From IMG/VR virus record IMGVR_UViG_3300012987_000017, positions 1 to 27,533 of that record: a stretch of 27,533 nucleotides of DNA; one strand, written 5' to 3'. A model generated the notes under the pieces. The model was not told where the DNA came from, searched no databases, and saw only the letters and a list, made by a program, of their open reading frames with translations. Both the position numbers and the translations under genes were made by a program. This DNA is from a virus. Taxonomy: Duplodnaviria > Caudoviricetes. Positions 5,657 to 26,060 of this stretch are shown here, one piece after another. Position 1 is the first letter of the stretch. Every line of letters begins with the position of its first letter.

Positions 5657-7162
5657 TTAGATCAGGATGTGGGAGCCCTCGACCTTGCGGATCGCGTCGT
5701 CCTTGGAGTAGATGAGGGTGTAGACGGCCTTCCATTCGGTTCGGCTGTCCACGGTCGTGTAGCTCTGCAGCACCACGTCCACCCAGTAGCCGAGGCGGAA
5801 GACCTGCTGCCACGCGAGTTCATCGTTGGTCAGGTTGGTGATGTAGAGCTTCTGCGTCGTCGTGAGCGGCTTGCCGACGCTGATCGTCCCGTTGAACGTC
5901 GCTTGCGTGATCACGGATTGGATGATCGCCAGGAGCTGACTGCGCCCCGTAGCGTTGGCGGACACGCGGGCCAGCGACAGCAGCAGGCCCATGATGGCCG
6001 CGCCCATCGCATCCTTGAGCCACGCTTCATTGGCGTAGACGTTGATGTCGACCGGGTCCGTCGCGAGGCCCATCATCACGCCGCGCTGATAGAAGTCCAG
6101 GAATTGGCCGGCGGTCTGGGTGCGCCCGTAGTAGTTGACCCGGTTCGCGTCCATCGTGTCGGCCACGCTGTCAGACGACACCGAGGGCGTCAGCGCCGCG
6201 ATCTGGAACATGTAGTTCTGCACGCTGTTGCGCCGGCTGTAGTCGGTCGCAGCGAGCACCGCAGCGGGCAGCAGCTCGGGGAACTCGGTCGCCAGCGGGG
6301 CGAGCGTGACGGCCACGCCGGACAGGCCCTTCAGCGCCGCGTACGTGGTCGCCGCGTCGGCCGCCTGGATGGGAACGAGGTAGATGAACTTCACGTTGTA
6401 CGTGTCATTCTGCAGGGCCACCGCGGCGATCTGGTCGGCGGTGAGCGTCGGGATGAAGGCGAACGAGCCGAAGTTGTCCGTCGCCGAGGCGCTGCGGATG
6501 AAGGCGTCGAGCGGCTGTTCGGCGGCCACGCCGGGCGAGAAGATCGCGCCGCCGTTCCAGCCCAGCAGGGCGCGGATGTCCGTCCCCGTGCCCGGCGCAG
6601 CCGTGGCGACTGCCGCGACCCCCGGCGTGCCGCCGACCAGCTCGAAGCGCTGCGCTACCGCGTTGTAAGTCACCGTCGCGCCGGTCCAGTTGGCACCGCC
6701 CGCCACCACAGCCTGGATGGCGGTCTGCAGGATGCTTGCGACCTGCGAGAGGGATGCCGCCGCGGCGAAGTTGATGCCCGTCACGTCGGCGGTGTACGTG
6801 CCGATGGTGAGCTTGAGCGCGCCGGTCGTAATGGGGGTGAAGGACGAGACGAGCCGGGCGGCCGAGGAACCGTAGATGCGCGCCGCGGCGACGGCGTCGG
6901 CGTAACGCGAGAAACTGATCTTCTTCGCGTTGGTGATGAGCTTCGAGATGAACCCGAAGTAGAAGACGGCGCGTGCGTACTCAGGCGACGAGGTGCCGAA
7001 GTAGGCCCCGACCGAGTCGGCGCTCGTCATCTCCAGCACGCCGTCAGCGGGCACGAGAGGCGACGTGGAGAAGAGGCGCAGGATCAGGTCGCGCGTGCGG
7101 ACGGCGACGCCCCCGCCGACCCCGCTCACGATGTCGACATAGCGCTTGAAGGAAATCGTCAT
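5657..7162 (-). CDS. Contractile tail sheath protein (DUF3383-like)
   Basis: 501 aa; [12 protein letters not shown] and NYYG motifs, C-terminal [17 protein letters not shown]; synteny. Confidence 0.9.
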
Positions 7163-11313: not shown

Positions 11314-12954
11314 TCAGGCCCCTTCTTTCTTCAGGTGGTCCGCGACGAAGCCGGCCGAGGGGCGGGCGGCGTCTTGGCCGGTGGTGTGAGCGGACGGCAG
11401 CTTGACGGGGCTCGCCTTGAGGAAGCCTTGCAGCATGGCCTTCTCTTGGCCCTTGGGGGCCTTGAGTTCGAGCTTGTCGCAGCCGTAGGCCACGACCTGG
11501 GCCAGCGTCATACGGCTGTGGTCGAACGCGCCGACGCGGCGCGAGATGCCCGATGCGAGTTCATCGCGTTCGGCCATCCGCAGCACGAACGCCGCTTCGT
11601 CCATGGCCGGGGCCGCGGGCGAGACGACTTCCTTGTCGCCGCCAGCGCCGGCCGGGGTGCCTTCGCCGCCCTCGCCTTCAGTGACGGCCGGCTTCACCGC
11701 GTCCAGCTCGACGACCTCTTCGGCCACCGGGGCGGCGCCTCCGCCACCCAGGGCCGCGAGCGTCTTGTTGATCTCGGCGATCTGCGGGACGATGGTCGAA
11801 AGAACCTTCGCCATCTCGGTGAGGGTCATTTCCCCCGAGGGTTCCGCGTCACCCGCGGGCTTCTTTTCGTCGGCCATGGTGGCTTCCTTTGCGTCAAGTG
11901 AAAACGTCATGCGGTCCATCACCGCGACATCAGGGCCCATTCGACCTTCGGCCACGAGCGCGAGGTGATTGCCGCGGATCTTGCGCTGCACGAAATCGTA
12001 GTTGGTGCCGTTCCAGACACCCGCCACGCGTTCGTAGATGCAGCGATATCCTGCGCTCAATTCGCGCTTGCCTGCCTCGATGAGTTGCGCCAGTGTAGAC
12101 GAAAAAGCCTTGAGGTTTGCGAGCAGGTAGCCCGACTCGGGATCGAAACGCACCTGCTCGCCGATGATCCCTTGAACGCCCTTCTGCTCGGCGGCCACAC
12201 TGCCGGGGATCTCGTCGACGGCGTTGGGGCCGATCATCGTGTGGTCATCGACCCACGGGATCAGCTTGAAGCTCTCGACGCACTCGGGGTCTGCGAGTTC
12301 TTCGGGCGGCCGGAAGACCTGGAAGATTCGGTCCGCGTCCTCGCCCCCGAGCCCGAGCTGCCGGCCGCTGTAGGGGAACACGCCGGCCTTGCTGATCGGG
12401 TTGTCCTTCACCTCGAACCAGCCGTTTCCGTCGACCGTGCGCTCGTCCATGGCCCCTGCCATCGCGACGGCTGCGGCGGTGAGCTGGACGCGTTCGAGGG
12501 TCAGCGCGCAGCCCGGATGCAGCGGCGCGGGCAACGAGGCGATGGGGGCCCACACGTAGCCCAGGTGCTCGTGGTTGATCACGGGCACGAAGGGCGCGGG
12601 CAGCTCGCAGACAAACGAGGTGAATCCGTTGCTCCAATCGAGGAAGCGAATCGGCAGCTCGGGCGTGTAGCCCGTCTCCTCCATACTCTCTCGAATGGCG
12701 GCCTGCTCGGGCGTCTCGCCCTCTTCGATCCCGCCGCCCGGGAATGCCCAGGTCAGCGGGTGGTCACAGTCGCCGTCGCGGCGCAGCAGGAGCAGCACCG
12801 AGCCCGCGCAGTGGAAGACGATGCCGGCCGCCCGGTTCACGCCCTCCGCGTACTGCGCGGCGATGGTCGCCGCCTGCACCGCGCCATGGCCGGCGGCCAT
12901 CAGCGTTTCGATGTTGCGCGCGATCACATCGGCGGTGATGCCCTGCTGAAGCAT
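11314..12954 (-). CDS. NUDIX hydrolase - prohead protease (DUF2213-like) - scaffold fusion
   Basis: Nudix box GGIEEGETPEQAAIRESMEETGY. DUF2213-type motifs ISKAGVFPY, VFRPPEEL, ELSAGY and NHLALVAEGRMG. Acidic, low-complexity scaffold-like C-terminal region. Confidence 0.85.
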   Translation of the reverse strand: MLQQGITADVIARNIETLMAAGHGAVQAATIAAQYAEGVNRAAGIVFHCAGSVLLLLRRDGDCDHPLTWAFPGGGIEEGETPEQAAIRESMEETGYTPELPIRFLDWSNGFTSFVCELPAPFVPVINHEHLGYVWAPIASLPAPLHPGCALTLERVQLTAAAVAMAGAMDERTVDGNGWFEVKDNPISKAGVFPYSGRQLGLGGEDADRIFQVFRPPEELADPECVESFKLIPWVDDHTMIGPNAVDEIPGSVAAEQKGVQGIIGEQVRFDPESGYLLANLKAFSSTLAQLIEAGKRELSAGYRCIYERVAGVWNGTNYDFVQRKIRGNHLALVAEGRMGPDVAVMDRMTFSLDAKEATMADEKKPAGDAEPSGEMTLTEMAKVLSTIVPQIAEINKTLAALGGGGAAPVAEEVVELDAVKPAVTEGEGGEGTPAGAGGDKEVVSPAAPAMDEAAFVLRMAERDELASGISRRVGAFDHSRMTLAQVVAYGCDKLELKAPKGQEKAMLQGFLKASPVKLPSAHTTGQDAARPSAGFVADHLKKEGA

Positions 12955-19077: not shown

Positions 19078-19494
19078 ATGCTGTTCGCTAAGATTAGCCG
19101 CAAGGAAGCCTACGCCGGAGGCTTCAAGCGCTTCTACACCGGCAAGCTCTGCAGCCGCGGCCACGACGCCCAACGCTTCGTTTCGACTGGCGGCTGCACG
19201 AAATGCAACGCCGAGCGCGCCAAGGCCTTCCGCACCGGAGCTGATACTGTAAGTTCAGCCGTCCAACAAGGGGCGTTCCTCCACATGCTGCACCCCGACG
19301 ACCACGAGGCAGCCCGGGCGTACTGCCAAGCCCTCGACATGCAGCGGGGCCGCACACCGTGGAGCCCTCCAGAGCGGCGAGCCGCCCCCGCCGTGCCCTT
19401 CGATGTGGAGGCCGCTCGCGCTCGCGCCTTCGGTCTCGCCGCCAAGCTGCAGCCGGCCGTTGACCCCGACACCCTCCCGGACGGCATGCGATGA
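19078..19494 (+). CDS. Hypothetical protein with a putative Zn-binding N-terminus (138 aa)
   Basis: FYTGKLCSRGH...CTKC (C-H-C-C) motif; AAGGA RBS; first rightward gene. Confidence 0.75.
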   Translation: MLFAKISRKEAYAGGFKRFYTGKLCSRGHDAQRFVSTGGCTKCNAERAKAFRTGADTVSSAVQQGAFLHMLHPDDHEAARAYCQALDMQRGRTPWSPPERRAAPAVPFDVEAARARAFGLAAKLQPAVDPDTLPDGMR

Positions 19495-19763
19495 CTCCGA
19501 AGCAAATCCACACCCTGCGCCTGCTCGCCGTCCGGCCGATGTGGCGCAACGCCCTCCCCGATCTGGTCGCACCCCGTCAAGGCTGCAGCGGCCGGCAGCT
19601 CTACTGGTCTGCGCAGGCTTCGGCCCGCATGGGCGGTCGGCTGCTCGCCGCGCTGATCCGCGAGGGCTACGTACGGATGGAGTCGCCCTACAGCGGTAGC
19701 CGGAGGGACGTGGCGCACATCACACCGGAGGGAAAGAAAGTTCTTGACACCTTAGATAAGTGA
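19491..19763 (+). CDS. Hypothetical protein, possibly winged-helix-like (90 aa)
   Basis: ATGA overlap; LAALIREGYV...ITPEGKKVL resembles the C-terminus of a wHTH domain. Confidence 0.6.
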   Translation: MTPKQIHTLRLLAVRPMWRNALPDLVAPRQGCSGRQLYWSAQASARMGGRLLAALIREGYVRMESPYSGSRRDVAHITPEGKKVLDTLDK

Positions 19764-19773
19764 CACATAAACT
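19744..19773 (+). promoter_or_regulatory. Sigma70 promoter P1 with operator-like box
   Basis: TTGACA (19744)-18 nt-TAAACT; contains GTGACACATAA, which is shared with P2 and P3. Confidence 0.7.
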
Positions 19774-19803
19774 CGCGTCACCATCAACAACGGGGAGGTT
19801 CTA

Positions 19804-20655
19804 GTGACCTACGTTTCTCTCAAGCAAGCTGCCGAGGCCAAGGCCAACGGCTTCCAGAAGGCCACCTATTTCAAGCTCGACCCCAACGTCGTCAAGATCG
19901 AGGAGGGCTGGAACGGCCGGGACGAGACGCCCGACCTCCTGGAGTACCGCCAGCGCCTGAAGCAGGCCATGAAGGCCGGGGCCATGATCCCGCCCATCGA
20001 CGTCGAGATGGTCGACGGGGAGCCCATCGTGCGCGACGGCCACAGCCGCACCCTGATGGCCCGCGAGCTGGTCGCCGAGGGCGTGCCGTACGTGCTGGAG
20101 GCTCGCCAGTTCAAGGGCAACGAGGCGGAGGCCCGATACCACATGATCGGCAGCGCTGGAGGCCGCGCGCTGTCCCCGCTGGAGCAGGGCCGGCAGTTCA
20201 AGCTGCTGGTCTCCTACGGCCAGACGGTGGCCGACATCTCCAACCGCACCGGCATGCATCGCAGCACCGTGGAGAACGGCCTGCAGCTCGCCGACGCGCC
20301 CGTGGCGGTCCAGAAGCTCGTCACCTCCGGCAAGGTCGCCAGCCACCTCGCGCTCAAGGCCGTCCGGCAGCACGGCAAGGAAGCTGCCGCGGTGCTCAAG
20401 GCGGGGGTGGAGAAGGCGGAGGCCGCGGGCAAGACCAAGGCCACGGCCAAGCACGTGTCGCCCATGAAGGGCCGCAAGGTGCCGCTCGCCGAGCCGGGGG
20501 CGCGCGGTCAGACCCTGCCGCCGGCCTCCGCGCAGAACGACCTCTTCAACCTCGCGATGTCGCTGGCCGCCGTCAATATCCTCGTGACGGAACTGGACCG
20601 CGACACCATCGCCGGCCTCGTCCAGAAGGCCCGCACGCTGGTGGGGATGGCATGA
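19804..20655 (+). CDS. ParB/Srx-like domain plus HTH protein (283 aa)
   Basis: IPPIDV...IVRDGHSR (ParB box II-like), LSPLEQG, HTH TVADISNRTGMHRSTVENGLQL; GGGGAGG RBS and GTG start. Confidence 0.8.
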   Translation: MTYVSLKQAAEAKANGFQKATYFKLDPNVVKIEEGWNGRDETPDLLEYRQRLKQAMKAGAMIPPIDVEMVDGEPIVRDGHSRTLMARELVAEGVPYVLEARQFKGNEAEARYHMIGSAGGRALSPLEQGRQFKLLVSYGQTVADISNRTGMHRSTVENGLQLADAPVAVQKLVTSGKVASHLALKAVRQHGKEAAAVLKAGVEKAEAAGKTKATAKHVSPMKGRKVPLAEPGARGQTLPPASAQNDLFNLAMSLAAVNILVTELDRDTIAGLVQKARTLVGMA

Positions 20656-20945
20656 GCACGACCACCATCTACTGCGACGACCATTACTCGGACAGCATCA
20701 AATCGTTCGAGGTCGTGGGCGAGACGGATAAGTTCTGGAAGATCGCCGTCAAAGGCTGGCGTCCGGGCGATCCGGACCAGATCCGCCGCCAGGAGAAGAA
20801 GCCCAACGAGTTCCGTACCTGGATCGAGGCAAACGACCACCTGCGAATTCGTGTCACGCGCGAATTGCTGCGTGCCCAGGACAACGTCGACCGCCTGCGC
20901 GGCATCATCGAGCGTATCGACAAGCTGGAGGACCCCACGAAATGA
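20652..20945 (+). CDS. Hypothetical protein (97 aa)
   Basis: ATGA-coupled on both sides; C-terminal coiled-coil-like segment. Confidence 0.7.
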   Translation: MSTTTIYCDDHYSDSIKSFEVVGETDKFWKIAVKGWRPGDPDQIRRQEKKPNEFRTWIEANDHLRIRVTRELLRAQDNVDRLRGIIERIDKLEDPTK

Positions 20946-21826
20946 AAGGCACCAAGTACGACGACCCGCTGCTCGATCGCGTGTTGCATGGTGGTTCACG
21001 CCCCACCCCGACGAAGGCCGAGATGCTGGCGACACCATACGAGGACATTGGCCTATGCCTCCGCGACATGATCAACGCGCCGGGAATGAACAGCATCACG
21101 ACGCCGGACTACGTTGTCCGCGTGGCCGCGTGGCTGGACAAAGCCCCCGAGGCCCTGGCACCTGACGCGGCAGCCGTCTCAAACCTTCTCAAAGAGGCCG
21201 TGTTGGCGGCCATCCGTGAGTGGAACGGCAGCAACCACAAGCTCACCCTGTCCGAGTCGACCTATCTCGCGGAGCACGTCATGGGGTCGCTGGGCGTGGC
21301 CTTGAACGACAGTCCCGGCGCGGTCAAACATCTGCGCGTTCGATGGGAGGATGCGCTCGCCCATGTGCGCGCCGCGCTCGCCGCCCATCCGGTGGCGGGA
21401 GGGGTGCCGGCCGAGCCGTTCGCGTGGGTCGATGTCGAGGAATGGGCCGCCGGTTCGCCCATGGAAGATTGTTTCTTCCGTGTCGAGGAGGACAAGCCCA
21501 ACGATGACGCTGTGCTGTCGCCGCTCTACCTCGCCGCCCCTGTCGAGGTGCTGGGGGAGCAGGCGACGCGCTGCGAATACTGCGACGGAACCGGCGACGT
21601 GGTGAACCAGATCGGCGAGTGGCGCGGCACGTGCACGATGTGTGACGCCGCCCCGCCAGCGAAGGCCGAACTTCCGGGTCTGCTCGCGAGGCTGAGGGCC
21701 GAGATTGATCATGCTGTGCGGAACGATCAGCGATTGCCTCCCGAGTTCGGAAAGAGAAAAGGTCCGCTTGTCGTGCGCGCCGGCCTGCTGCGGGCCCTGA
21801 TGAAACATCTGAAGGACGCGAAATGA
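20942..21826 (+). CDS. Hypothetical mosaic protein with a CxxCxGxG...CxxC motif (294 aa)
   Basis: ATGA overlap and GGAGG RBS; AEPFAW...PLYLAAP linker motif and CEYCDGTG...CTMC. Confidence 0.7.
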   Translation: MKGTKYDDPLLDRVLHGGSRPTPTKAEMLATPYEDIGLCLRDMINAPGMNSITTPDYVVRVAAWLDKAPEALAPDAAAVSNLLKEAVLAAIREWNGSNHKLTLSESTYLAEHVMGSLGVALNDSPGAVKHLRVRWEDALAHVRAALAAHPVAGGVPAEPFAWVDVEEWAAGSPMEDCFFRVEEDKPNDDAVLSPLYLAAPVEVLGEQATRCEYCDGTGDVVNQIGEWRGTCTMCDAAPPAKAELPGLLARLRAEIDHAVRNDQRLPPEFGKRKGPLVVRAGLLRALMKHLKDAK

Positions 21827-22143
21827 TCACCATCGACGAAATGCACAAGGTGCCCGGGATCTACGTGATCCAGGGTCGGTCGAGTTGCTTCCTCGTCGAG
21901 ATCGACAGCAGCCGCAAATGCCACCAGCTCGAACTGCAGACGCTCAAGCGCGACGGCGTCCTGCACCGCGACGGGTGGCACGAGCCTTGGACGCTGCGCA
22001 TCATCGGCCCGCTCGGCCGGCCGGGCGCGGAGCTGTCGGACGACGTGATCAAGGGCGCGGCGTTGAAGTTCGCCCACGCAGGCACCGATGCCAACTACGC
22101 GTTTCGCGCGGGTGCGAAATGGGCCCGGGAGCAGCTGCGGTGA
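21823..22143 (+). CDS. Hypothetical protein (106 aa)
   Basis: ATGA overlap and AAGGA RBS; ends AFRAGAKWAREQL. Confidence 0.7.
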   Translation: MITIDEMHKVPGIYVIQGRSSCFLVEIDSSRKCHQLELQTLKRDGVLHRDGWHEPWTLRIIGPLGRPGAELSDDVIKGAALKFAHAGTDANYAFRAGAKWAREQLR

Positions 22144-22262
22144 GCATCCGCCGCCTCAAGCGCCGGGCGTACAGGCTGCAGCTCCATCACCACGTAGGCT
22201 TCATGCCGGCATCCGCCACCCATCGGGGTGTCTGCATCTTCTGGAACGTGCCGCGAAAATAG
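22140..22262 (+). CDS. Possible 40-aa basic peptide
   Basis: GTGA overlap and GGGAG RBS; MSIRRLKRRAYRLQLHHHVGFMPASATHRGVCIFWNVPRK*. Confidence 0.45.
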   Translation: MSIRRLKRRAYRLQLHHHVGFMPASATHRGVCIFWNVPRK

Positions 22263-22265
22263 TTG

Positions 22266-22295
22266 TTGACAGCCCCAATTACGTGACACATAATT
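22266..22295 (+). promoter_or_regulatory. Sigma70 promoter P2 with palindromic operator-like box
   Basis: TTGACA-17 nt-CATAAT; the palindrome AATTACGTGACACATAATT (22277-22295) overlaps the -10. Confidence 0.85.
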
Positions 22296-22321
22296 GAGCC
22301 ATCAACACCGGAGCAGACACC

Positions 22322-22525
22322 ATGACCACCGCCCGCAACTTCATCGCCGACAACACCCGCGTTTCCTTCCAGTACCGTCAGCACCCGCTGCTCGGCGGCG
22401 CGCTGGTGACGGGCACGGGCGTGGTGATCGGCCGCACGGTGGTCGGAGTTGAAGACGCCTACAGCATCAAGCCCGACAACGGCGACACGGTGCATGTCCG
22501 CTTCGCTGGCGTCCGCGCCGCCTGA
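22322..22525 (+). CDS. Small hypothetical protein (67 aa, SH3-like beta pattern), ends VRAA
   Basis: GGAG RBS; its stop lies inside repeat R1. Confidence 0.8.
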   Translation: MTTARNFIADNTRVSFQYRQHPLLGGALVTGTGVVIGRTVVGVEDAYSIKPDNGDTVHVRFAGVRAA

Positions 22526-22549
22526 CCCGCCACCCCTCGACTACTGGAG
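22517..22549 (+). repeat. Junction repeat R1
   Basis: GCCGCCTGACCCGCCACCCCTCGACTACTGGAG. Confidence 0.95.
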
Positions 22550-22557
22550 CAGACACC

Positions 22558-22731
22558 ATGACCCCCGCCCAGCAATCCGCAGAAATCGCTAAGGCTGTTG
22601 CTGAAATGGTCGGCGACTATAAGGCCGGTGCGCGCTTCACGGACGGCGACATCCGCGCCACCGCCAAGCGATTCAACGTGGACGCCTGCGCGCTGTACGC
22701 CGCATTCAACGACGCAATCCGCGCCGCCTGA
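22558..22731 (+). CDS. Small hypothetical protein (57 aa), ends IRAA
   Basis: Translated by hand: MTPAQQSAEIAKAVAEMVGDYKAGARFTDGDIRATAKRFNVDACALYAAFNDAIRAA*. It exactly fills R1-R2. Confidence 0.8.
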   Translation: MTPAQQSAEIAKAVAEMVGDYKAGARFTDGDIRATAKRFNVDACALYAAFNDAIRAA

Positions 22732-22755
22732 CCCGCCACCCCTCAACTACCGGAG
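22723..22755 (+). repeat. Junction repeat R2 (2 substitutions)
   Basis: GCCGCCTGACCCGCCACCCCTCAACTACCGGAG. Confidence 0.95.
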
Positions 22756-22760
22756 CCCAC

Positions 22761-22844
22761 ATGCCTCAACGCACCCAGGAGCAGCAGGACCTGCTTGATC
22801 GCGCCTACCGCGAGCAGTACGCTCGCAAGTGGGGCCAGCGATGA
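22761..22844 (+). CDS. 27-aa peptide
   Basis: MPQRTQEQQDLLDRAYREQYARKWGQR*; uses the R2 RBS and is ATGA-coupled to the next gene. Confidence 0.65.
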   Translation: MPQRTQEQQDLLDRAYREQYARKWGQR

Positions 22845-23038
22845 ACTGGCTTCACGCGCTCTACCTGCGCATGCGCATCAACAGCGCCCGGCGTGATGTG
22901 CGGTACTTCGAGCGAGAGGCCGCCCGCGCCCACAGCATGCAGCACGCGGAGTACTTCAAGGCCCAAGCCGCCGTTGCGCGCCAGTCCATCGGGCTGTGGC
23001 GCTGCGAGCTGGGCATCCTCGGGGAGGACATGGCGTGA
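22841..23038 (+). CDS. Small hypothetical protein (65 aa)
   Basis: MNWLHALYLRMR...GEDMA*; coupled by ATGA upstream and GTGA downstream. Confidence 0.7.
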   Translation: MNWLHALYLRMRINSARRDVRYFEREAARAHSMQHAEYFKAQAAVARQSIGLWRCELGILGEDMA

Positions 23039-23259
23039 GCGCAACCGACAGCATCAAGGACGTGACACTCCGCGCGATTCGTCGCGGCGCGAACTCACGG
23101 AGCCCCGTGGAGTTCTGGGCAAAAGACGGGGTTATCTTCGTGCTGGACTACTGGCGGGGCACCGACCTGCCCTACATCGCGCGACGTGTGGGAGCCCAGA
23201 CCAGCCGCCGCTTCTCCCGTCTGTGTGACCTGCGCGCCCACCTGGAGAACCCGGGATGA
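23035..23259 (+). CDS. Small hypothetical protein (74 aa)
   Basis: GTG start with GGAGG RBS; MSATDSIKDV...LENPG*. Confidence 0.7.
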   Translation: MSATDSIKDVTLRAIRRGANSRSPVEFWAKDGVIFVLDYWRGTDLPYIARRVGAQTSRRFSRLCDLRAHLENPG

Positions 23260-23426
23260 AGCGCAAGCCCCGCCAGCTCACCGAGGCACAGCAGCATCAG
23301 GCCGACGAGCTGCGGGCCAAGTACCGGACGCTCAAGGCGGCCGGCCTCCACGCCTCCGCCAAGCAAGTGCGCCGCCGTCTCGTGGCACTGCTGGGCAACT
23401 TTGAAGACGAAAGGCTACCGACATGA
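23256..23426 (+). CDS. Small basic helical protein (56 aa)
   Basis: Translated by hand: MKRKPRQLTEAQQHQADELRAKYRTLKAAGLHASAKQVRRRLVALLGNFEDERLPT*. GGAG RBS and ATGA overlaps on both sides. Confidence 0.7.
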   Translation: MKRKPRQLTEAQQHQADELRAKYRTLKAAGLHASAKQVRRRLVALLGNFEDERLPT

Positions 23427-23776
23427 ACCAACCCCCAGCCGTCGTCAGCGGCCGTGTGCGTCGCATTGCTAGCACGTCCCGATTCCTTGAAGAAGTGCGA
23501 ACCGGTCGCCTCTTCGTCCAGATGCCCTCGAACCACGCGCCCACGTCAGGCGACGTGCTGCGCTTCGAGCGGGCTCTCTACCCTGAGACGTCCATCGACG
23601 TCGTTGTGACGCGCGTCCACGCGGGCAAGATCCCGGGCCACTCGACCGTCTGGTTCGAGCCGATCCCGCAGCCCCGCGAAGTGAAGTGCCTACACCCGGG
23701 TTGCCCGAGCGTGGACGGCAGCGCCCACAGCCCCGAATGCGAGGCAGCGCACGCGCAAGCCTACATCGGCCATTGA
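23423..23776 (+). CDS. Hypothetical protein (117 aa) with a C-terminal Cys/His cluster
   Basis: ATGA overlap; CLHPGC...HSPEC; last gene before the hairpin and terminator. Confidence 0.65.
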   Translation: MNQPPAVVSGRVRRIASTSRFLEEVRTGRLFVQMPSNHAPTSGDVLRFERALYPETSIDVVVTRVHAGKIPGHSTVWFEPIPQPREVKCLHPGCPSVDGSAHSPECEAAHAQAYIGH

Positions 23777-23781
23777 TCCCC

Positions 23782-23855
23782 GGGCGGCGGAACTCTCTCC
23801 CTCCCCAACTATCCGCCGCTCTTCGCGCCCGTCCTAACCGATGGGCGTTTTTTTT
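23782..23855 (+). ncRNA. Candidate small RNA / 3'UTR element with an anti-SD-like loop
   Basis: 10-bp stem GGGCGGCGGA/TCCGCCGCTC with a 20-nt G-free loop ACTCTCTCCCTCCCCAACTA, followed by a terminator hairpin and T8. Confidence 0.45.
23826..23855 (+). terminator. Intrinsic terminator ending the P2 unit
   Basis: CGCCCGTC-CTAACC-GATGGGCG-TTTTTTTT (one G-U pair). Confidence 0.85.
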
Positions 23856-23856
23856 G

Positions 23857-23886
23857 TTGACAGCCGGAATTACGTGACACATAATA
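23857..23886 (+). promoter_or_regulatory. Sigma70 promoter P3 with palindromic operator-like box
   Basis: TTGACA-17 nt-CATAAT; nearly identical to P2 (GTTGACAGCCnnAATTACGTGACACATAATnGAGCCATC). Confidence 0.85.
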
Positions 23887-23920
23887 GAGCCATCGCAACA
23901 CGAAACCCGGAGCAGAGACC

Positions 23921-24082
23921 ATGAACGCATACACCTTCAAGCACGCACGTCGCAATTTCCGCGTGACACCCGATGGCCGGGTCGAAAAGCTCACGTACGA
24001 CGGCGCGGGCGCCCCCAAGTGGTTGAACGTTCCGGTAACTCCCGAACTCGCAGCTGCCGCGATTGCCTCGCGCGCCGCCTGA
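23921..24082 (+). CDS. Small hypothetical protein (53 aa), ends SRAA
   Basis: Translated by hand: MNAYTFKHARRNFRVTPDGRVEKLTYDGAGAPKWLNVPVTPELAAAAIASRAA*. GGAG RBS; stop inside R3. Confidence 0.8.
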   Translation: MNAYTFKHARRNFRVTPDGRVEKLTYDGAGAPKWLNVPVTPELAAAAIASRAA

Positions 24083-24106
24083 CCCGCCACCCCTCGACTA
24101 CTGGAG
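24074..24106 (+). repeat. Junction repeat R3
   Basis: Identical to R1 over 33 bp. Confidence 0.95.
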
Positions 24107-24112
24107 CCACCC

Positions 24113-24313
24113 ATGAAGACCGCAACCCACCGCCAAATCGCCAACGCCGTGTTTGCCGCGCAAGGCAAGCCCCGCACCTGGGTCGTGATTCAGCAATGGT
24201 TCGCGCAAAACGAGGGCAAGCCGTCGGCCCCCATGACGTATCGCGAAGCAAAGGCCATCGCCCGCGCAACCCGTCAAGCGGGCGGCTATGCGAGCGTGGA
24301 GCGCGCGGCGTGA
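24113..24313 (+). CDS. Small hypothetical protein (66 aa), ends ERAA
   Basis: Uses the R3 RBS; GTGA-coupled to the next gene. Confidence 0.8.
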   Translation: MKTATHRQIANAVFAAQGKPRTWVVIQQWFAQNEGKPSAPMTYREAKAIARATRQAGGYASVERAA

Positions 24314-24453
24314 GCTACGTTGTGATCGTGGAGCGCGGCCCGATGACCCGCGACGTGTACGGCCCCTACCGCAGCTTTAAACGCGCCGATGGCGATGCGA
24401 AGGCGTGGGGCGGGACCGTCGAGCCGATCCGCAAGCCTTCCGACGCCGCCTGA
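24310..24453 (+). CDS. Small hypothetical protein (47 aa), ends SDAA
   Basis: MSYVVIVERGPMTRDVYGPYRSFKRADGDAKAWGGTVEPIRKPSDAA*; GGAG RBS; stop inside R4. Confidence 0.75.
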   Translation: MSYVVIVERGPMTRDVYGPYRSFKRADGDAKAWGGTVEPIRKPSDAA

Positions 24454-24477
24454 CCCGCCACCCCTCGACTACTGGAG
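24445..24477 (+). repeat. Junction repeat R4
   Basis: Identical to R1 over 33 bp; continues TAGACACCATGACC, like R1 and the P2 leader. Confidence 0.95.
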
Positions 24478-24485
24478 TAGACACC

Positions 24486-24665
24486 ATGACCACCGAAATT
24501 TCCGGGCCATTCTTCGTGACGTATTACAACGCGCTGCTTGACCGGCGATGCACGTTGATCGACAACCTTGACGAAGAGACCGCCGACGCCGTGGTCGAGA
24601 AATACGGCGACAACGGTGACAAGTTTCACCGCATGCCCGAGGTGCGCAAAGAGCGCGCCGACTGA
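24486..24665 (+). CDS. Small acidic hypothetical protein (59 aa), ends ERAD
   Basis: MTTEISGPFFVTYYN...KERAD*; uses the R4 RBS. Confidence 0.75.
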   Translation: MTTEISGPFFVTYYNALLDRRCTLIDNLDEETADAVVEKYGDNGDKFHRMPEVRKERAD

Positions 24666-24702
24666 CCCTGCTCGCCCGCTGTTCCGACTGCCCCAACTGG
24701 AG
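24654..24702 (+). repeat. Degenerate junction repeat R5
   Basis: CGCGCCGACTGACCC...CCCCAACTGGAG: both ends resemble the repeat; the middle is diverged and longer. Confidence 0.5.
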
Positions 24703-24711
24703 AACCCCGCT

Positions 24712-24945
24712 ATGAGTCACCCTTATCCCATCGACAAAGGCATCCCGATGCCGCCCAAGCCCGTCGGCGAACACGAGCGCATCCGTGACACGTTGCTCCT
24801 GCTCGAAGTCGGCGAATCGTTCGAGTGCAGCGCCGACTACGCACAGAGCATGGTCGCCGCAGGCAGTGTGCCGCTCGCCCCGAAGAAGTTCGCCGTGCGC
24901 CCCGGCAGCACCACCGGCCGCGCCCGCATCTGGAGGACCGCGTAA
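24712..24945 (+). CDS. Small putative DNA-binding phage protein (77 aa)
   Basis: IDKGIPMP...LEVGESF...KFAVR...RIWR pattern of a common small phage protein family; GGAG RBS. Confidence 0.7.
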   Translation: MSHPYPIDKGIPMPPKPVGEHERIRDTLLLLEVGESFECSADYAQSMVAAGSVPLAPKKFAVRPGSTTGRARIWRTA

Positions 24946-25211
24946 TGGACCGCACAGAAGCCCTCGTGGGCGTAGGCATCTTCGGCACACTCTTCCTGCT
25001 GATCGCAGGAACCATCTGGCTCATTGTCGAGGACGGTCGAGAGTGGGCCCATTTCCGTGACGCCCACAACTGCCGCGTCGTCTCGAAGATCCGCGGTGAC
25101 ACGTTCAATACCTGGAGTGTCGGGCCGAACGGGCAGATGCAAGTCGGCATCGGCAGCACTCCCAGCAAGACCGGCTATCTCTGCGATGACGGCATCACCT
25201 ACTACCGCTGA
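24945..25211 (+). CDS. Small membrane-anchored protein (88 aa)
   Basis: TAATG overlap and GGAGG RBS; N-terminal TM helix (ALVGVGIFGTLFLLIAGTIWLIV); HNC...YLCDDGITYYR. Confidence 0.75.
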   Translation: MDRTEALVGVGIFGTLFLLIAGTIWLIVEDGREWAHFRDAHNCRVVSKIRGDTFNTWSVGPNGQMQVGIGSTPSKTGYLCDDGITYYR

Positions 25212-25220
25212 AAGGACCAC

Positions 25221-25436
25221 ATGAGACGCTACACCCACCAATCGCACACCGTGATGGCGCGGGCGCCCACGTACGACCTGATCGTGGCCGCCATCGCCCG
25301 CATGCACGGCACGAGCCCCGAGCGCGTCCAGATTCACGGGGAACGCGTGGTGGTCGAGGGCATCCGCAAAGCCCACTGCCGGGTCGTCGCGTACGGTCGA
25401 GAGTGGCGGTATGAGTCCGGCGCACCGAGGAGCTGA
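25221..25436 (+). CDS. Small hypothetical protein (71 aa)
   Basis: AAGGA RBS; fills the operon. Confidence 0.65.
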   Translation: MRRYTHQSHTVMARAPTYDLIVAAIARMHGTSPERVQIHGERVVVEGIRKAHCRVVAYGREWRYESGAPRS

Positions 25437-25437
25437 C

Positions 25438-25662
25438 GTGCCCTACCCCTTTGCCCCTTCACCGCCGACGATCCGCGACGTTGACAAGATGCCCGAAATG
25501 CAAGCCTTCGTCAGGCACCCCAATGACCTGATGGGCGACGCGTGCCCTGGCTGCGGGGCGTTCCGGATGGACGTTTCGTATTACAAATGTATGGGGGTGT
25601 GCGACGTGTGCGCGAACGAAGAGGCCGACGAGTGGGAACGTCTGGCGGAGAACGGGCAATGA
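25438..25662 (+). CDS. Small Cys-rich, zinc-ribbon-like protein (74 aa)
   Basis: GTG 25438 with GAGGAG RBS; CPGC...CMGVCDVC. Confidence 0.65.
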   Translation: MPYPFAPSPPTIRDVDKMPEMQAFVRHPNDLMGDACPGCGAFRMDVSYYKCMGVCDVCANEEADEWERLAENGQ

Positions 25663-25775
25663 GCCGCCGCGACCTCACCTTCTGCCTCTTCGCGCTGTTT
25701 CTTGTCTTCCTGTTCCAGGGAGACCCGAACGTGCGGGATCTGCTGCGCGCAGCAGTAATGCGCCACCTGGAATAG
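25659..25775 (+). CDS. 38-aa membrane peptide
   Basis: MSRRDLTFCLFALFLVFLFQGDPNVRDLLRAAVMRHLE*; ATGA overlap and GGAG RBS. Confidence 0.65.
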   Translation: MSRRDLTFCLFALFLVFLFQGDPNVRDLLRAAVMRHLE

Positions 25776-25800
25776 AAAAGGGCCCCTCGGGGCCCTTTCT
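25776..25800. terminator. Bidirectional terminator between converging operons
   Basis: AAAAGGGCCC-CTCG-GGGCCCTTTCT. Confidence 0.8.
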
Positions 25801-26060
25801 CACATCTGGCTGACTGCGTAATCCGCCGCCGCGTCGACCTCTTCCGGTGTCGGGTGCTCCGGATCTTTCGGCTCCTGCGAGGCCATCAGCTCGAAGAACT
25901 TCGGGTCGAGCGCCACGAAGGCGCGGCGTTGCGCACGCCAGCGGCGCGCGTCGGCCTCCAGGGCGTCGAGCTGGGCGCGGACTTCCTCGCGGTCTCCGTG
26001 ACATGCGGCGGCGGCACCGATGATCAGCTCGCGGAATCGGGCGTTGGTGAGAGAGGGCAT
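25800..26060 (-). CDS. Hypothetical protein (86 aa)
   Basis: Starts 3 nt after the primase/helicase stop and ends at the terminator. Confidence 0.7.
   Translation of the reverse strand: MPSLTNARFRELIIGAAAACHGDREEVRAQLDALEADARRWRAQRRAFVALDPKFFELMASQEPKDPEHPTPEEVDAAADYAVSQM

Follow-up and report, generated by a model that had tools for sequence, protein, structure and literature searches.

Why should several unrelated small genes of one phage end in nearly the same sequence? The question is raised by a 27,533-nucleotide stretch of viral DNA (IMG/VR record IMGVR_UViG_3300012987_000017, positions 1 to 27,533; hereafter, the window), in which a 33-bp repeat, here called the junction, spans the end of one open reading frame (ORF), its stop codon, a spacer, and the Shine-Dalgarno (SD) sequence of the next gene. 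The answer that we favor, and consider probable, is that the junction is a gene-boundary sequence (stop codon, C-rich unstructured spacer, and SD sequence) that acts with a promoter-proximal leader and start box as short homology for swapping and stacking whole small genes between phages of one host group, probably via single-strand annealing proteins.

A search of the window with the 33-bp pattern gave four matches, all on the plus strand: R1 (22517 to 22549), R2 (22723 to 22755), R3 (24074 to 24106), and R4 (24445 to 24477). No match occurred in 100 dinucleotide shuffles. R1, R3, and R4 are identical, R2 has two changes, and all other sites differed by at least 13 mismatches in a gapless scan of both strands. 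A degenerate copy after gene K, R5 (24654 to 24702), is alignable only with a gap. At R1 to R4, the junction TGA is the in-frame stop of ORFs A (67 amino acids [aa]), B (57 aa), H (53 aa), and J (47 aa), respectively, and GGAG lies 8, 5, 6, and 8 nucleotides (nt) before the next ATG. R1 and R2 are spaced 206 bp apart, and R3 and R4 are 371 bp apart. A second shared sequence, the start box GGAGCAGACACCATGACC, is found at 22310, 22546, and 24474, with a variant at 23909. An earlier sequence-only reading of the window had reported the four copies (three identical and one with two changes), their register, both spacings, the start box, and the degenerate copy, and each was recovered here, the shuffles indicating that no copies are expected by chance. 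Its picture of a repeat-delimited array holds for A, B, H, and J, which end in the repeat, but not for C to G or I-J, which are joined by ATGA or GTGA overlaps; its size range for the cargo (27 to 77 aa) is exceeded by gene G (117 aa).

The evidence that carries our reading lies outside the window. Scanning metagenomes for the repeat retrieved four loci, consisting of the window twice, one chance match, and a contig from the same assembly, L057. The window stops at residue 114 of the baseplate J protein and L057 begins near residue 170 of the same protein, so the two very likely belong to the same genome. Behind the DNA polymerase gene of L057 are a fourth promoter, a leader with start box, gene Q (57 aa, C-terminus ...NRHTT), and a fifth junction copy, CC-TGA-CCCGCCACCCCTCGACTACTGGAG. 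Q is present on two contigs. The second (locus L089, record G001) is from a lambdoid phage encoding an Erf-like annealing protein, a RecE-like exonuclease, a single-stranded DNA-binding protein (SSB), DnaC, and NinG. The two contigs share a single block, identical at 225 of 226 positions, that begins in the leader, takes in the whole of Q, and runs to ...CGACTACTG. Identity ceases at the end of the repeat, and the flanks of the block are only 27/100 and 35/100 identical. Each phage has its own promoter, with four mismatches between the -10 region and the leader (the L057 version resembles the window promoters), and the gene after the unit differs. Outside the block, G001 and the window phage share only short matches, namely, leader and junction copies and 27- to 56-bp linkers in one mosaic gene. 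The support that the sequence-only reading had proposed to seek by a repeat search, other phages with different ORFs at the same repeat, was found once, between unrelated phages, and in this one case the mosaic breakpoint coincides with the junction, a feature of the boundary sequences discussed below.

How such a unit might move can be read from the extent of identity around the copies. On the left, identity to R1 begins at staggered positions (-11 for B, -9 for H, -7 for J, and -2 for Q), matching the pattern given by homology-based crossovers. Perfect blocks measure 34 to 37 bp among R1, R3, and R4; with the L057 copy they reach 29 bp, and with G001, 26 bp. In the sections of PMC3945230 cited here, the minimal pairing lengths are 23 to 27 bp for Red-beta and 31 to 34 bp for RecA, and an Erf/exonuclease pair is described as being as efficient as Red. 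Stenotrophomonas phage B2, a relative whose gene order is paralleled by that of the window, has genes for an exonuclease and a Gp2.5-like annealing protein; for B2_18, labeled "RecT-like" in GenBank, neither Pfam nor PHROGs supported that label, which was set aside. Taken together, the ragged identity edges, the 26- to 37-bp perfect blocks, and the lack of an integrase in the genes that were scanned point to exchange by homology rather than an integron.

By this mechanism, one crossover in the leader and another in the junction would replace the first gene behind a promoter. Because ACYGGAG at the 3' end of the junction also forms the first bases of the start box, unequal crossover at this sequence could stack units (A-B and J-K) and copy the junction in the process. 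R1 and R4, which continue into start boxes at 22546 to 22563 and 24474 to 24491, would then be junction-plus-start-box hybrids, the product expected when a unit is inserted before a former first gene. The junction is likely kept because a stop codon and an open ribosome-binding site (RBS) would survive every exchange, the spacer being C rich and unstructured. The decay of the distal copies R2 and R5 fits promoter-proximal entry, with few copies to judge by. What stands of the plug-and-play array proposed earlier is that the junction marks the exchange edge of an expression-ready gene (Q at 225/226 identity, with different genes flanking the core elsewhere); its comparison to an integron probably does not.

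A 17-bp core of the junction was also sought in viral contigs, where it occurred at 30 loci. Eight of these offer a plausible junction context (L070, equivalent to L062; L072, equivalent to L057; L074; L075; L076, equivalent to L063; L089; L067; and L080), with an RBS present and an upstream ORF absent in L067 and L080. The remaining 22, which seem to be coding sequence or chance matches, were discarded. The core, CC-TRA-CCCGCCACC(C/A)CT, is also found ahead of an RBS in L062, L063, and L074, where the neighboring genes are different; L062 and L074 have 26 bp in common across it, and in L074 it follows an unrelated gene. Its occurrence in records G001 to G005 and in the window makes it a short gene-edge sequence common to otherwise different phages. 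The 22-bp repeat and the promoter pattern each had no match in viral contigs, and two GTDB matches and L055, all inside bacterial coding sequence, were taken as chance.

The source of the junction is likely to have been the 3' end of an A-type gene, which crossovers at differing positions would have transferred to other genes. For gene A, 10 homologs were found (61 to 87% identity); 6 of them end in VRAA and 8 in AA, and in the predicted model of A (pLDDT 85) residues 64 to 66 form the last strand. In L063, an A homolog ends in VRAA with GCCGCC-TAA-CCCGCCACCACT directly after, as a single copy; farther downstream, separated from it by other genes, is a homolog of gene C (65% over 23 aa, E = 5e-4). 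In L062, the core is about 100 nt 3' of the stop of the A homolog (5925 to 6022), with no significant fold in between (z = 0.44). Such an origin would explain the Arg-Ala-Ala ends. Ala-Ala had been regarded in the sequence-only reading as an integral part of the junction; the fifth copy follows a protein ending in Thr-Thr, and its identity to R1 begins 2 nt before the stop. Ala-Ala is therefore not required. A designed degron or linker was likewise rejected, given that Ala ends are common (18/43 first-gene families, 5/43 with Ala-Ala, and 9/22 core window genes with Ala).

The 5' boundary of the proposed exchange unit is far more widespread. A leader motif scan retrieved 119 loci, 98 of which have an SD sequence and ATG within 40 nt; a -10-like box lies just upstream in 92 of these 98. 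The 91 complete first ORFs behind the leader fall into 43 families. Because 26 loci with the same second gene carry 11 different first-gene families, swapping of the first slot behind the leader is common in other phages. The start-box scan gave 22 loci, and only the two Q loci have a junction at the end of the gene. A wider generalization is possible, although we hold it to be doubtful: GC-rich proteobacterial phages, lytic and temperate, may use a common exchange format for the first gene behind early promoters, with the leader (CCATCGCAACAC..AACCCGGAG) on the 5' side and the junction on the 3' side, of which the window would contain a polarized, recombinase-free stack with promoter-proximal entry and decaying older junctions. 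If true, the host-interaction (anti-defense) genes most recently under selection could be read off from the first slots.

Two further sequences recur at leader loci. An element of two hairpins (CCGCTGC..GCAGCGG and CAAGCC..GGCTTG-like) followed by CCAGTGTCACC occurs just 3' of the stop codon that ends the first ORF at 11 of the 91 loci (L132, L145, L150, L151, L156, L178, L184, L186, L191, L199, and L245), representing eight ORF families. It is a candidate structured RNA or antitermination site, with no Rfam hit in the five loci tested. The second gene of L144, L153, L168, L181, and 22 other leader loci starts with MQPLRPIDY (CTCCGCCCCATCGACTAC), which resembles CCCGCCACCCCTCGACTAC of the repeat.

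Several observations weigh against homology-based swapping at the junction. A core-like motif follows only 3 of the 91 first genes, two of these being Q, and the core is absent in three of the five loci with an A homolog. Only one sharp-edged transfer was found, at the L057 copy rather than at a window copy. Seven window genes between P1, the promoter of gene A, and gene L (C to G, I, and L) lack a terminal repeat, and no indel or reordering between R1 and R5 was seen, a close relative not having been found among the databases searched. The start-box homology of 18 to 20 bp is shorter than the minimal lengths given in the cited sections of PMC3945230, and perfect start-box matches are only 13 to 20 bp in most pairs. 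Finally, the phage's own recombination-gene region lies outside the recovered part of its genome.

Three other explanations were weighed. The one that survives best, although we think it unlikely, is that the junction is mainly an RNA-level signal (an open ribosome standby site or a site bound by a host or phage protein, for example Rho, a nuclease, or an antitermination factor). Selection would have kept and homogenized the signal at the first junction after early promoters, with recombination as a side effect. The composition of the spacer (12 C, 3 A, 3 T, and 2 G) and the lack of a stable hairpin in the junctions (fold z of +0.5 to +2.2, with R3 and R4 folding worse than or equal to 200/200 shuffles) are in line with this role, as are the retention of a 13- to 17-nt core in phages of 56 to 68% GC and the presence of a copy behind the first gene at each of three promoters (P1, P2, and that of L057). 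Such a signal alone, however, leaves unexplained both the 225/226 unit ending at the repeat and the staggered identity in coding sequence before the stop; moreover, most early genes have no junction, and Rfam returned no match to it. An RNA-level role and a role in recombination are not exclusive.

It is quite improbable that the repeat is left over from a local duplication or from gene conversion within a single phage lineage and plays no role in gene traffic. This proposal draws on a set of 31 family-relative loci (27 of 51 primase loci, those that extend at least 5 kb beyond the primase gene, plus L058 to L061). None has a junction array, and repeated 26-mers occur in five (three promoter copies and two paralog-like); amplification of the junction is therefore lineage specific. 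A local relic does not account for the same junction with a whole gene in an unrelated lambdoid phage, nor for the flanked ORFs being unrelated to each other. Primase relatives have repeats of other kinds, including a 68-bp two-copy intergenic repeat 5' of RBSs in L043 (11625 to 11692 and 12241 to 12308, minus strand) and, in many of them (L004 to L024 and L049), 15-bp tandem arrays beside the primase gene with pentapeptide-repeat-like coding.

Integron cassette arrays (attC/attI/IntI) also stack small cargo genes behind a promoter with a repeated site between them. That a site-specific recombinase acts on the junction to insert cassettes behind the promoter is the least probable explanation of all. 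In its favor, the promoter-proximal copies are intact and the distal ones decayed (R2 by two changes, R5 degenerate), a start box and a junction bracket each of five genes (A, B, H, K, and Q), and only part of the genome has been recovered. Against it, the junction has no fixed crossover point and no hairpin, inverted-repeat, or folded attC-like structure, and no integrase was found among 25 + 30 proteins in a PHROGs scan that covered selected proteins of the window and a relative (including the three genes that lie between helicase and polymerase in the relative).

With homology-based exchange retained as the favored explanation, the array can be followed along the plus strand of the window. 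Promoter P1 (22266 to 22294; TTGACA-17-CATAAT, 11/12 consensus bases, GTGACAC box adjoining the -10 element) leads into the leader (22295 to 22327), which includes the start box (22310 to 22327) as the 5' boundary and has 20 bp in common with the G001 leader. Gene A (22322 to 22525), predicted to form a small all-beta domain, ends in R1, the core of which begins with CC-TGA at 22521. The orphan gene B (22558 to 22731) has R1 and a start box on one side and R2 on the other. Genes C (27 aa), D, E, F, and G (22761 to 23776) follow with stop-start overlaps and no repeat, and an intrinsic-terminator-like hairpin with a T run (23825 to 23858) ends the P1 unit. Promoter P2 (23857 to 23885; TTGACA-17-CATAAT, 11/12 consensus bases, GTGACAC box) precedes a leader, CCATCGCAACACGAAACCCGGAG, with the start-box variant (23886 to 23926), and this leader is widespread in other phages. 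Gene H (23921 to 24082) ends in R3, after which the overlapping genes I (66 aa, C-terminus ERAA, no repeat) and J (24113 to 24453) extend to R4. Gene K (59 aa, 24486 to 24665) belongs to a family of 23 representatives conserved to PEVRKE, with a variable tail thereafter, and gene L (77 aa, 24712 to 24945) is the first after R5.

A related promoter, P0 (19744 to 19773, plus strand), has the same GTGACACATAA box and lies 5' of a ParB-like gene without a junction repeat; only three promoter-like sites occur in 19600 to 25900, none inside a junction. A 90-aa ORF with no family hit (19491 to 19763) ends at P0. It appears winged-helix-like by eye and is a candidate regulator of the GTGACAC promoters.

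The cargo genes have no Pfam or PHROG family match, and weak PADLOC and NCBIfam matches (E = 0.002 to 0.006) were rejected. A PDB sequence search returned no match for gene A, and its matches for gene K were judged to be chance. An anti-defense function for the cargo is a guess from position only. The leader motif nevertheless offers a handle for mining first-slot genes (43 families at 91 loci) as candidates for host takeover or anti-defense.

The minus strand of the window encodes terminase, portal, capsid, sheath, tape measure, and baseplate proteins as well as a primase, which identifies it, at the level of gene content, as part of a contractile-tailed phage. Its head maturation protease (11317 to 12954, minus strand) has an N-terminal NUDIX-like domain according to PHROG hits. 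The best isolate-phage matches to window proteins are about 45 to 55% identical, and positions 22150 to 25800 have no match in isolated phages, nor does gene A. We infer a lytic lifestyle because no integrase or repressor was seen and a betaproteobacterial host because Bordetella and Burkholderia phages top the terminase matches. A further clue to the host comes from the SSB of the partner phage, G001, whose nearest relative among plasmids is from Collimonas (57% identity only).

G001 and the window phage also contain two mosaic ORFs (20942 to 21826 in the window; 530 to 1615 of L097, minus strand), presumably ead/ea22-like, that share only 27- to 56-bp linkers (APEALAPDA, AAHPVAG, and AAPPAKAE). 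This sharing suggests that domains have been shuffled at linkers within genes and that the two phages have made a second exchange. The Q promoter of G001 lies back-to-back with a gene for a 58-aa protein (L097, 1856 to 2130) that has an RPRGRPP motif and a ribbon-helix-helix-like tail; its nearest named Atlas clusters are MobC/NikA-like at 0.88, a lead only. GTGGC(A/G)C boxes lie 5' of both back-to-back -10 elements, at the place where the window promoters have GTGACAC.

Our search of the literature found no description of this junction element, supplementary repeat lists (which could bear on novelty) lying outside its scope. Besides integrons, three known systems resemble it in part. Start-associated sequences (SAS) and extended SAS (ESAS) of cluster K mycobacteriophages and Microbacterium phages are, like the start box, over-conserved RBS-start motifs before small nonstructural genes, and their authors noted that the motifs could be recombination targets (PMC3203893 and PMC7302621). 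In the portions of these papers considered here, an SAS is about 13 bp long and the upstream stop is not described as part of it, whereas the junction includes the stop; ESAS carry 17-bp inverted repeats, and none were present in the junction folds or among the 25 longest inverted repeats listed.

The promoter-early stem-loop elements (PeSLs) of T4-type phages similarly reach from the upstream stop to the SD sequence and start codon and flank small orphan early genes (PMC2839356). As presented in the cited parts of PMC2839356 and PMC4122927, PeSLs mediate swapping by homologous recombination, the mode proposed here for the junction, and mini-circles have been demonstrated for them. A PeSL, however, is AT rich and contains a sigma-70 promoter and a stem-loop, while the junction is C rich and unstructured, with the promoter and leader forming a separate boundary. 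Judged by its sequence, the junction is not a PeSL, because promoter and stem-loop are absent inside it.

A parallel to the Q unit is provided by the boundary or linker sequences of lambdoid phages, proposed targets of homologous recombination in the making of mosaics (Clark et al. 2001 and Susskind and Botstein 1978, as cited in PMC3029335). The passages of PMC3029335 used here also describe a 1.35-kb insert in phage LRRHood, flanked by a 29-bp direct repeat that lies at the 3' end of a gene, and report that boundary sequences are absent at most mosaic borders. The junction has two features of a boundary sequence, a short shared gene-edge sequence and a mosaic breakpoint there; it differs in its five near-identical copies plus one decayed copy in a single myophage and in its 226-bp single-gene link to a lambdoid phage. 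The junction is thus a variant of boundary-sequence/PeSL-type shuffling with an unusually clean cross-phage transfer. To the old boundary-sequence model, it adds a near-identical single-gene unit in a contractile-tailed and a lambdoid phage, with breaks at the leader and the junction, and a short, testable substrate for how likely lytic phages acquire small early genes from temperate ones.

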